A DNA stretch of 46,485 nt. Source: Bdellovibrionota bacterium FG-2. Lineage in GTDB: Bacteria > Bdellovibrionota > UBA1018. The position numbers and the translations under genes were made by a program. This document shows positions 1 to 1,503 of the stretch, one piece after another; positions within the stretch are counted from its first letter, which is position 1, and each line of letters starts with the position of its first letter. The notes below the pieces were generated by a model. That model did not search any database and had not been told where the DNA came from. It saw only the letters and a list, made by a program, of their open reading frames with translations. The stretch lies in the NCBI GenBank assembly GCA_051382305.1, contig JBBCAV010000040.1, positions 1 to 46,485 of the forward strand, read 5' to 3'.

Positions 1-111
1 CAGCTCTTTCCTGAGCTTGAAATACAGCACTTTTCGTCTGCATTTCGGGATGAAAGTCACATGGTATTTGCATTCCCACCGCGTGTGGCTTAATGATTCT
101 GACTCGTTCAT
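1..111 (-). CDS. tnpA: IS200/IS605-family Y1 transposase, N-terminal 37 aa (runs off the left edge of the window)
   Basis: Not in the ORF track. Reverse complement of 111..1 reads MNESESLSHTRWECKYHVTFIPKCRRKVLYFKLRKEL, the typical IS200 TnpA N-terminus (SLSHxxWxCKYHxxFxPKxRRK). SD-like AGAAAGGAA at 121-129. Confidence 0.93.
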   Translation of the reverse strand, partial: MNESESLSHTRWECKYHVTFIPKCRRKVLYFKLRKEL

Positions 112-225
112 AAATTGGGTTTCCTTTCTGTGTAACTTTGAGCGGTTCACAGTTAGGAGACCCATTCATAGAACGTCTCCGGCAAAAGTCAAACTCCAGG
201 AGTCCCCCAGTATACCTGGGGGATT
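1..225 (-). mobile_element. IS200-family element, left end (partial)
   Basis: tnpA start plus subterminal hairpin TCCCCCAG-TATAC-CTGGGGGA at 203-223, as expected for IS200/IS605 ends. Exact boundary uncertain. Confidence 0.8.
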
Positions 226-470
226 AGCGATTTTATTTATTTACCCGAAGACGGATCCAGCGGTTTGTTGATGAGTTCCGGAAAAAGAGTGGACAACTTC
301 CCACGCTTCAAGACTGCGAGAGAGAAGGACTTACTCGCGAGCAAATCAAGGCGTCCATAAAAGACAAAGTGATCGAGCAGTTTTATGTGACCCTTAGCAA
401 TGGGACCATCATGAAGGGCTACAAAATCAAGTAGCAATTTCTAATATTTCAAGTGACACTATTGACTAAT

Positions 471-1133
471 GTGCGCCAAGCAAAGCTTGAAACAACCAGT
501 GGGTGCGGAAGCCGGTCGGGAGATCACTCTTCCTAGTCTCACCCCGGGAAACACCATAGAGTCCGGGTATCATAGCTGGCGTTCATCACCGCGAGGTGCT
601 GGACGAAGCCCAGTGCGAAACGATGTAGGCCGTAATGCCTTAAGTGGCGTGAAGGTATCGAGCCCCGTTAAACATAACGTTCCAGAGTGGCCGAGTAGGT
701 ATTTAACTGCGAAGGCAACACCCCTCATCTCGATGAGAGGCACTCTCGGGGTCCAAGTCCATGGCATGTATCGAAGGCTGTCTCAGGAACTTGGGAGATC
801 TTCAATGGATCGAGCTTTTAAAAGCTCGTCCCAACGAGCAAGGACCAATGACCAAGTTCGCCAGGATTCGACATTGAAGAAGTCAGACTGGTTCGTAGTA
901 GCATCGAAGCGGAGTAATGTCCGTGGAGCCAAGGGACCAGCAGGGCTTGGGCTCTCGGCGCCTCCCTCCCGGGGGTGTGTTTCAATACACGCCAACCAAC
1001 CCGGCACGAGGAGCGTCGTGCATAACTCCTTCGGGAGCAACCAAGAACTGAGGAGCCCGTTGCCTAAATTGGGCACGGCGGGTTCTGCGAGGGGCCTACC
1101 CTCTTTCGAAAGATTAGGGCAGGTCTACTCTAT
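471..1133 (+). ncRNA. Group II intron, ORF-less (no intron-encoded RT), inserted within a start codon
   Basis: 5' GTGCG at 471. DI basal stem CCAAG(476-480)/CTTGG(790-794). DII GATCTTCAATG(797-807)/CATTGAAGAAGTC(872-884). J2/3 AGA(885-887). DIII CTGGTTC(888-894)...GGACCAG(934-940). DIV only ~110 nt (941-1050). DV GAGCCCGTTGCCTAAATTGGGCACGGCGGGTTC (1053-1085) with AGC triad and AC bulge. DVI with bulged A1127, the 7th nt from the 3' end ...CTACTCTAT(1133). gamma A885 matches terminal U. Confidence 0.93.
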
Positions 1134-1503
1134 GAACCTCACCGATGAACTTATTTTGCTGGGACAGATGGATTTAGCCGAAGCTAAACGAATTCGCTCG
1201 ATCCTTGAGGATCAAGGGGTGGTCTTCCAACTTCGCACCGAGGTGGAGGCTTGTAACTCAAAGGGCTGTAAACCTACGGCGCAGGTTTATACCCGGGATG
1301 CGGACCTACCGGTGATTCGAGAGTTTTTTGAAAAAGAACACGTCAGATCTTTGGCGGGCCTTGAGGTCAACCACGAGCTGCAAAACGCCGTTTTTGATTC
1401 CGAAAAATCAGAAGCCACTTGCCCGGCCTGCGGGACGGTGTTTTCGACTCTGAAGACCGAATGTCCGGATTGCGGGCTTTGTTTTGGGGGACCCACGGGG
1501 TAG
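1132..1503 (+). CDS. 123-aa hypothetical protein with C-terminal zinc ribbon (CPACG...CPDCG); host gene of the intron (spliced start = AT 469-470 + G 1134)
   Basis: The C-terminal third of ORF 469..1503 is protein-like (MNLTDELILLGQ...CPACGTVFSTLKTECPDCGLCFG); the first 221 codons are intron RNA. Confidence 0.8.
   Translation: MNLTDELILLGQMDLAEAKRIRSILEDQGVVFQLRTEVEACNSKGCKPTAQVYTRDADLPVIREFFEKEHVRSLAGLEVNHELQNAVFDSEKSEATCPACGTVFSTLKTECPDCGLCFGGPTG

Follow-up and report, generated by a model that had tools for sequence, protein, structure and literature searches.

How does an intron come to lie inside a start codon? The question is raised by a stretch of DNA of 46,485 nucleotides (nt) from Bdellovibrionota bacterium FG-2 (contig JBBCAV010000040.1, positions 1 to 46,485). 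We call this whole stretch the window, and coordinates without further indication refer to it. Positions 471 to 1133 are occupied by a group II intron which has no open reading frame (ORF) for a reverse transcriptase (RT). It separates the AT from the G in the start codon of a gene for a zinc-ribbon protein. The comparisons described below support the junction AT|G as a rule for the whole family of introns to which this one belongs, and the insertion sites mostly carry the promoter signature of leaderless genes.

The intron and its ends

Positions 471 to 1133 can be taken as confirmed, from sequence comparisons, to be a complete ORF-less group II intron. A preliminary description of the window, made from its letters, had already proposed a complete ribozyme without RT at these positions. 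The features of the intron and its surroundings are collected in Table 1. The only Rfam model which matches anywhere in the window at gathering thresholds is RF02005, in domain I (DI; the other domains are named DII to DVI accordingly). Its match begins 62 nt from the intron 5' end. DV and DVI are not recognized by the Rfam model for these domains, RF00029; they are recognized instead by a covariance model (R1) which we built from the DV and DVI of 47 relatives, with the window excluded. R1 has a single match in the window, from 1053 to 1133 (75.9 bits, E 4e-18, model positions 1-80 of 80), which ends on the last intron base. The family alignment of these two domains contains compensatory changes in 16 of its 27 predicted pairs. 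In the match to R1, A1127 is left unpaired, in agreement with the earlier choice of this base as a candidate branch point. The minimum-free-energy fold of the intron has a z score of -2.74 when compared with 20 shuffles.

The intron ends in AT (1132-1133) and so has the GUGYG and AY ends expected of a group II intron. Since ATG is found at both junctions, the cut is ambiguous by up to 3 nt when judged from the sequence alone; the consensus ends GUGCG and AU fix it at 471 and 1133. The list of open reading frames contains no RT ORF inside the intron. The only remnant of such a gene is the RT start region at 915-936, and identity to the RT-bearing relative in genome G018 ends at query position 466. 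A remnant ORF of 44 codons (917-1051) starts with MSVE, while the RTs of the family start with MSME. The two halves of the intron are of different types. Its 5' part is 81% identical to G018 over positions 1-466 and is of the type which ends in TTTACTT(A/G)AT; its DV and DVI are of the TACTC(G/A/T)AT type.

The protein encoded downstream has 32 homologues of 103-178 amino acids (aa), which align with it from the N-terminus. Its match to Zn_ribbon_3 scores below the cut-off of that family. An orthologue without intron is found in a genome of the same genus (G001) and starts with ATGAAC, like the predicted spliced form. In the window the TAA found at the RT start is out of frame, and the frame which begins at 469 continues, over 344 codons, through the intron to the end of the host gene; the chance of such a frame is estimated at roughly 1%. 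It had been anticipated that gene callers would report a 344-aa protein here, yet the product on record for the contig has 123 aa (P0001). We have considered an open frame through the whole intron as a general property of ORF-less members of the family and rejected it: the frame closes after 25 codons in locus L156 and after 8 in L185, and in L182, the closest relative of the DIV remnant of the window, a stop is found 3 codons before the host ATG.

Table 1. Features of the ORF-less intron, its junctions and its flanks in the window.
Feature	Position	Strand	Evidence
5' flank as assembled, ends AT; probably the exon of another identical copy	1-470	+	
5' junction ATG (exon AT and first intron G)	469-471	+	
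344-codon frame, open across the whole intron into the host gene	469-1503	+	Open reading frame list
ORF-less group II intron, 663 nt	471-1133	+	Rfam, family DV-DVI model, copies, intron-less orthologue
GUGCG consensus at the intron 5' end	471-475	+	GTGCG common to all copies
DI core	533-761	+	RF02005 (group-II-D1D4-6), 89.5 bits, E 7.4e-24, gathering score 49, model 1-225 of 225
Exon-binding site 1 (EBS1) loop GUAUUUAA; AU at 701-702 can pair with exon AU	699-706	+	Rfam structure line, family alignment
DIVa remnant with RT start region, TAATG at 915-919	890-936	+	Similarity to RT-encoding relatives ends here
Rest of DIV, RT ORF lost	937-1052	+	Resembles only metagenome locus L182, 78% over query 452-624
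DV, AGC triad and 2-nt bulge	1053-1085	+	Family DV-DVI alignment and model
DVI; A1127 unpaired, candidate branch point, 7 nt from the end	1089-1130	+	Model alignment, family consensus
3' junction ATG (last intron AT and exon G), host gene start codon	1132-1134	+	
Zinc-ribbon gene, 123 aa and stop	1132-1503	+	32 homologues of similar length, N-termini aligned

The junction rule in the intron family

The window belongs to a genome of 433 contigs (G000, 85% complete), in which it is contig C40. Another contig of this genome, C19, contains a related intron encoding an RT/maturase of 485 aa. Pfam recognizes RVT_1 in it (130 bits) and, weakly, GIIM, but no endonuclease family. Relatives of the RT were sought in one genome per species; 171 were found and the best 80 were taken, which we call the genome set. 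Where RT identity is at least 49%, the titles name Bdellovibrionota/Oligoflexia and Myxococcota, with a few others. Nearer outgroups include an RT from Thermosynechococcaceae (locus L040, 40% identity). A search of the PDB gives group IIC RTs as the best matches, followed by TeI4h and LtrA, and a tblastn search of plasmids gives RTs with about 40% identity from cyanobacterial, Bacillaceae and S. meliloti plasmids.

In the genome set, 19 of 21 3' junctions read ATG. Most of these (13 of 19) open ORFs of at least 98 codons or run off the contig. The downstream ORFs are unrelated: they include genes for PFK, Mur ligase, YceI, globin, E1 dehydrogenase and two histidine kinases. They begin at the N-terminus of their families, as seen in PFK, which is matched from residue 4, and in globin, which is matched from residue 11.

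The metagenome set was obtained with a pattern covering DV and the 3' end, in which the first base of the exon (+1) was left free. It contains at least 120 stretches; 80 loci with 81 matches are listed. The +1 base is G, giving ATG, in 63 of the 81 matches listed. Of the 62 distinct sites with ATG, 37 have a stop inside the contig, and 33 of the 37 are open for at least 60 codons, compared with 22.8% of the 9183 scorable ATGs in the same contigs. The upstream side leads to the same rule. Among 54 distinct 5' flanks, 45 end in AT, four in GT (these would be GTG starts) and five otherwise, so that 49 of 54 are AT|G or GT|G, as in an insertion inside an initiation codon. The cyanobacterial outgroups L037 and L041, with about 40% RT identity, are not at AT|G.

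These results agree with the earlier suggestion of a non-autonomous retroelement associated with start codons: the intron has copies and RT-bearing relatives, and AT flanks and ATG junctions prevail among them. The DIVa region at 890-936 is conserved with the RT-bearing introns and the C19 RT is encoded in the same genome, as would be found for an element mobilized by others.

The EBS1 loop is where it had first been located, according to the Rfam structure line and to a conserved UAUG in relatives. In these it reads UAUG(A/C), whose AU can pair with exon AU or, if a wobble is allowed, with exon GU. The following base mostly varies together with exon position -3: it is G in most cases where -3 is C or T, and C in both cases where -3 is G (L134 and L155). 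EBS1-exon pairing in the family amounts to 2-7 base pairs (bp).

Some other introns should be mentioned. Since AT|G is created again at the 5' junction by every insertion, introns might follow one another in tandem. At the 3' junction of the metagenome locus L186, at oriented position 366, the exon begins with GTGCGC, as though a second intron started there. Locus L111 (G095:C268, oriented positions 1505-1581) is a 5'-truncated remnant with only a mutated DV and DVI, which abuts the ATG of an ORF and looks like the fossil of an incomplete start-codon insertion. This ORF has the motif GGRRSGKST, which by eye resembles a P-loop. The genome of the window also contains introns of other kinds. L018 (G000:C317:41685-45368, minus strand) is of the D1D4-6 type (87.2 bits) and encodes an RT of 455 aa; its 5' exon ends in AAAC, not at AT|G, and it adjoins a copy of the repeat found at 1547-1846 of the window, with a tRNA nearby. 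L015 and L016 (G000:C313 and C201) are D1D4-2 introns (116 and 101 bits; 53-54 bits with RF00029), whose RTs have 444 and 427 aa.

Copies in the same genome and the 5' flank

A DNA search of the genome with the intron finds six places, including the window. Positions 1-141 of C41 are 100% identical to the intron 3' end and positions 1-119 of C142 are 100% identical to its 5' end. Further 5' ends, about 80% identical, are present in C180, C220 and C424, and in a motif census two more 3' ends, those of RT-bearing copies, come to light in C19 and C189. The five 5' copies diverge exactly upstream of G471 and have different flanks, all of which end in AT. The two 3' copies diverge after G1134. The genome contains at least two identical copies of the intron with different flanks. 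In sequencing run X1, which is probably the source of the assembly, the unitig depth is 57 over the part specific for the ORF-less intron and 12 on both flanks; this ratio of about 4-5 times is a hint of several copies and does not give their number. Identical copies with different flanks, together with the raised depth, point to recent movement. A domesticated splicing switch, another idea of the preliminary description, finds no support, since several copies of the intron exist and their sequence does not differ from one site to another. One X1 unitig joins the intron 5' end to a flank which ends in GT, not AT, and might represent a further copy at a GTG codon.

The 5' flank of the window requires some caution. 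The zinc-ribbon locus of G001 matches C142 (84.5% identity over 1449 nt) up to the zinc-ribbon gene, and the window from 1144 on; no counterpart of window positions 200-470 is present at this locus. Both C142 and C41 terminate within the intron, at 119 and 141 nt. The true arrangement is likely to be C142, intron and zinc-ribbon gene in one place, and window positions 1-470, intron and C41 in the other, with the contig joined across the repeated intron. Recombination between the two identical copies may be an alternative to a misjoined contig. The sequence GACTAAT, first described as the 5' exon of the zinc-ribbon gene, therefore probably belongs to another copy. Both candidate flanks end in AT, and AT|G holds whichever of them is paired with the gene. 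As to the native partner of the C41 3' exon, an orthologous lipoprotein region was not found in G001.

Two other features of the window lie near these flanks. A repeat of about 270-300 nt is found downstream of the zinc-ribbon gene, at 1547-1846. It has no Rfam match, and corresponds to more than 20 places in G001 and to matches on 15 other contigs of G000. An open-ended ORF occupies positions 1-165 on the minus strand, and the contig starts inside it; we take its translation, by eye, to resemble the N-terminus of an IS200/IS605-type transposase.

Promoter context of the insertion sites

The 5' flanks share only three positions. Counted from the splice site, these are T at -14 (23 of 45), A at -13 (32 of 45) and T at -9 (27 of 45). 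With the A of ATG numbered +1, they become T-12, A-11 and T-7 of a -10 box. In 25 of 46 intron sites the pattern TAnnnT precedes the A by 6-8 nt, compared with 5.4% of 5008 long ORFs in this genome, each taken from its first ATG. The opposite is seen for motifs like that of Shine-Dalgarno (SD), which are found in one of the 46 intron sites and in 25.7% of the same ORFs. A hexamer like the -35 box, at a distance of 16-18 nt, accompanies the -10 box in 13 of 24 sites. Zheng et al. (2011, PMC3160421) give TANNNT about 12 nt before the start codon, with no SD, as the mark of leaderless genes in silico. As judged by these motifs, the intron host genes look like leaderless genes. Ordinary ORFs of the genome show only a slight excess of TAnnnT (2.5% at 6 nt, compared with about 1.2% as background), so the introns occupy a rare class of sites. 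Given this signature, transcription would start 2 nt before the intron, whose first base would be at about +3 of the RNA.

In the zinc-ribbon gene these features depend on the flank which is chosen. No promoter-like site is present in the flank of the window, between 200 and 520. The C142 flank contains TTGATC-N16-TATTAT, followed by 8 nt and the ATG, and only with this flank does the gene resemble a leaderless one; the same flank has no terminator-like site. The -35 and -10 boxes of C142 are shared with the G001 allele (locus L102, 1440-1480). The distance from the -10 box to the ATG differs: it is 15 nt in the intron-less allele, with GAGGG, and 8 unrelated nt without SD in the intron-bearing one. 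The target had been described as possibly little more than AAT|G. The AT|G part of this proposal agrees with the family, and it has to be extended with the -10 box 6-8 nt upstream and the absence of SD.

Open frames over the ribozyme

The ATG created at the 5' junction opens a long frame in many family members. In 22 of the 31 introns ending in TTTACTT(A/G)AT the frame is open for at least 141 codons (141-178), and in 15 introns it ends in TAATG, on the start codon of the RT. In relatives the RT start lies 441-534 nt from the 5' end of the intron. At the other end, the RT ORF terminates 3 nt (in another count, 1 nt) before the end of the intron in the eight complete cases of the genome set, so that its stop shares bases with the ATG of the host gene in the form TAATG; in the family both TAATG and TGATG are found.

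We have compared 21 distinct sequences with an open frame, whose pairwise identity is 51-100% (median 64%). The other two frames contain 149 and 140 stops in the same stretches, while the first frame contains none, as follows from the way the set was built. The encoded peptides have no Pfam match and are unrelated between distant members, since the frame differs relative to the conserved RNA. It is the openness of the frame which appears to be kept, and not a protein. No open frame starts at the junction in the cyanobacterial relatives L037 and L041. The layout suggests translational coupling, from the host AUG to the RT and from the RT to the host gene.

A proposed explanation and its alternatives

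We consider it probable that these results have one joint explanation: the window contains an RT-less copy of a mobile intron which inserts at start codons, its sites are of the leaderless kind, the RT of related copies acts in trans, and the RT-bearing relatives are translationally coupled to their host genes. The family, found in genomes labelled as Bdellovibrionota or Myxococcota and in many environmental metagenomes, would insert between the second and third bases of the start codon, AT|G and sometimes GT|G, mostly in genes with a -10 box 6-8 nt before the ATG and no SD. The copy in the window, which retains DI-DIII, the DIVa region, DV and DVI, would be spliced and mobilized in trans by the 485-aa RT/maturase of its relatives in the same genome. 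In RT-bearing copies ribosomes would be handed from the host 5' AUG to the RT, and then back to the host gene.

More tentatively, we suggest an undescribed group II lineage specialized for leaderless start codons. Reverse splicing would take place between +2 and +3, at the downstream edge of the open-complex bubble, where the melted DNA may serve as a guide, and the 5' exon in the RNA would be only pppAU. Ribosomes would enter at the 5'-terminal AUG borrowed from the host, pass through the stop-free frame over DI-DIII and begin anew twice, at UAAUG for the RT and at U(A/G)AUG for the host gene. With such a relay of ribosomes through the intron, the host gene could be expressed even without splicing.

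Several observations weigh against these proposals. Some concern the window itself. RF00029 does not match in the window even at E<=1, and it scores 40-54 bits on relatives. In the EBS1 of the window, AUUUAA, only 2-3 nt can pair, whichever candidate exon is taken. Its whole-intron open frame is not common to the ORF-less relatives L182, L156 and L185, its 5' junction may be an assembly chimera, and the 3' exon of the second copy, C41, reads ATG followed by TGA, which is no gene start. Others concern the family. Six of the 19 ATG junctions in the genome set open only 1-48 codons, and two loci do not sit at ATG: L036, and L033, which lies within a kinase motif. Among the metagenome matches listed, 18 of 81 have another +1 base (three of the 18 match the DI profile, and the 18 may come from other lineages), and four of 37 ATG junctions are open for less than 60 codons. 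TAnnnT is not found at 6-8 nt in 21 of 46 sites, and the long frame is present in only one of 14 introns with a 3' end like that of the window, TACTC(G/A/T)AT. The metatranscriptomes X8, X20 and X23 cover only 533-683, 743-801, 890-938 and 1068-1113, with mismatches; these matches correspond to conserved parts of related introns, and no joint across the intron is seen among them. Finally, a transcript which starts at the A would leave a 5' exon of 2 nt, and we know of no precedent for splicing with such an exon.

The alternative which survives best is one in which the target is only DNA resembling a start codon, (C/T)AT|G, recognized through EBS1 and EBS3. The promoter signature would then result from purging and not from targeting, since only insertions right after the transcription start would leave both the host gene and the intron expressed. 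We regard this as possible, with less than an even chance. The EBS1 loop is kept as UAUG(A/C) and pairs over 3-6 bp with cognate exons, a G-U wobble would let the same EBS1 pair at the GT sites, and some copies are found at ATGs which are not gene starts (C41, L026, L027, L032 and L099). The difficulty is that a target of 3-4 nt occurs tens of thousands of times per genome, so intergenic ATGs should dominate; instead, long ORFs follow 33 of the 37 scorable metagenome sites and a -10 box stands at a fixed distance in 25 of 46. Targeting and selection differ only in the origin of the bias, and the sequences at hand do not separate them.

The copy in the window might also be a domesticated or decaying relic which is no longer spliced, the zinc-ribbon protein being made from the ATG at 1132 or as a 344-aa fusion. 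Several peculiarities mentioned above would be accounted for: the frame from 469 to 1503 is open through the whole intron, EBS1 departs from the UAUG of the family and RF00029 has no match. A relic is nevertheless unlikely, in view of the two or more copies which are 100% identical over their assembled parts and have different flanks, of an intron depth 4-5 times that of the flanks, and of a DV, DVI and branch A which fit the family model, with the DIVa region also kept.

Slightly less likely still is that TAnnnT-N6 is not a promoter at all and the genes are not leaderless, the motif being a DNA target read by the ribonucleoprotein through an EBS2-like pairing or by the RT. In L024 the exon from -14 to -6, which includes a TAACTT box, shows 9-bp complementarity to the variable DI segment before EBS1. 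In 22 introns, however, cognate pairs have a mean longest complementarity of 5.41 between exon positions -20 to -4 and that segment, no better than the 5.14 of non-cognate pairs. In addition, -35-like hexamers at 16-18 nt (13 of 24 sites with a -10 box) speak for promoters, and the near-absence of SD (one of 46) is not predicted by pure recognition of DNA. An artefact of assembly as the source of the start-codon position is very improbable: G001 synteny does place C142, and not window 1-470, upstream of the gene, and C142 and C41 do break off within the intron, but the contig is unique in sequence around the 3' junction with the zinc-ribbon ATG and both candidate 5' flanks end in AT.

Comparison with known systems

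Introns at start or stop codons have been described in the IIB1/CL1 clade, which includes Avi.groEL and EcKTE56.groEL; how these choose their sites is called unknown by Gomes et al. (2025, PMC12584367), who cite Michel et al. (2007). According to the same work, members of this clade come from proteobacteria and have a subdomain Ia of 300-700 nt and an RT which bears an endonuclease. The present introns are like them in lying within or beside initiation or termination codons and in re-forming the codon with their first G: UAA becomes UAG in that clade, while AUG remains AUG here. The structure is different. Instead of a subdomain Ia at the base of DI there is a hairpin of about 13 nt after GUGCG, with 441-534 nt for the stretch from DI to the RT start, and instead of a C-terminal endonuclease Pfam finds only RVT_1 and a weak GIIM in the RT. 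Each IIB1/CL1 intron homes to one conserved housekeeping gene with canonical long pairings between EBS and intron-binding site (IBS), whereas the present lineage is found in many unrelated genes, with 3-6 bp of EBS1 pairing and a promoter context. It shares start-codon insertion with the clade and lacks both its large subdomain Ia and its endonuclease RT.

Group IIC introns insert after terminators or attC sites (PMC12584367 and PMC4424553). The present family resembles them in the short EBS1-IBS1 pairing, in the use of a generic genomic signal as target and in an RT without endonuclease domain. It differs in that its sites are start codons behind -10 boxes and not the DNA hairpins of terminators or attC sites, in its D1D4-6 structure in Rfam and in the fixed G of its 3' exon. 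A review of 2015 names three target specificities in bacteria: homing sites, terminators and attC sites (PMC4424553).

The ORF-less TeI3 introns of Thermosynechococcus elongatus are mobilized by the RTs of TeI4 introns (Mohr et al. 2010, PMC2882425). In both systems ORF-less derivatives multiply beside RT-encoding relatives in one genome. Mobilization in trans has been demonstrated for TeI3/TeI4, while here we infer it, and the cyanobacterial relatives in our collection, L037 and L041, are not at AT|G. Translation through a group II ribozyme also has a parallel. In the yeast mitochondrial introns aI1 and aI2 the RT ORF is in frame with the upstream exon, and ribosomes enter from the host initiation site through DI-DIII. 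Here, in contrast, the upstream frame is an ORF of its own, without stops, which closes on the start codon of the RT and whose peptide distant members do not share.

Searches of the literature, by title and beginning of the abstract, have given no paper which links group II introns with leaderless genes. They have given no description of the present lineage, nor of group II introns in Bdellovibrio; Michel et al. (2007) and Simon et al. (2008) may bear on priority. The main text of PMC3552965 contains no mention of Myxococc, Bdellovibrio, start codon or ATG. We regard three features as new: the family-wide AT|G rule, the promoter-proximal context without SD, and the frame which stops on the RT start, with an RT stop overlapping the host ATG.

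In summary, a second start-codon lineage, structurally different from the IIB1 clade, would stand beside it, with sites at the promoter-proximal ATGs of genes without SD. Such introns have practical consequences: they break metagenome assemblies, as contigs end inside them, and they can give chimeric joins and mislead the annotation of start codons. Rarely do constraints on RNA structure and on reading frame overlap as they do here, where about 150 codons without a stop run across a conserved ribozyme. Should transcription begin at the A, a 5' exon of 2 nt would test current ideas on the binding of 5' exons in group II splicing. In any case, how a retroelement finds a start codon, which is called unknown for the IIB1/CL1 clade, becomes a question which can be tested.

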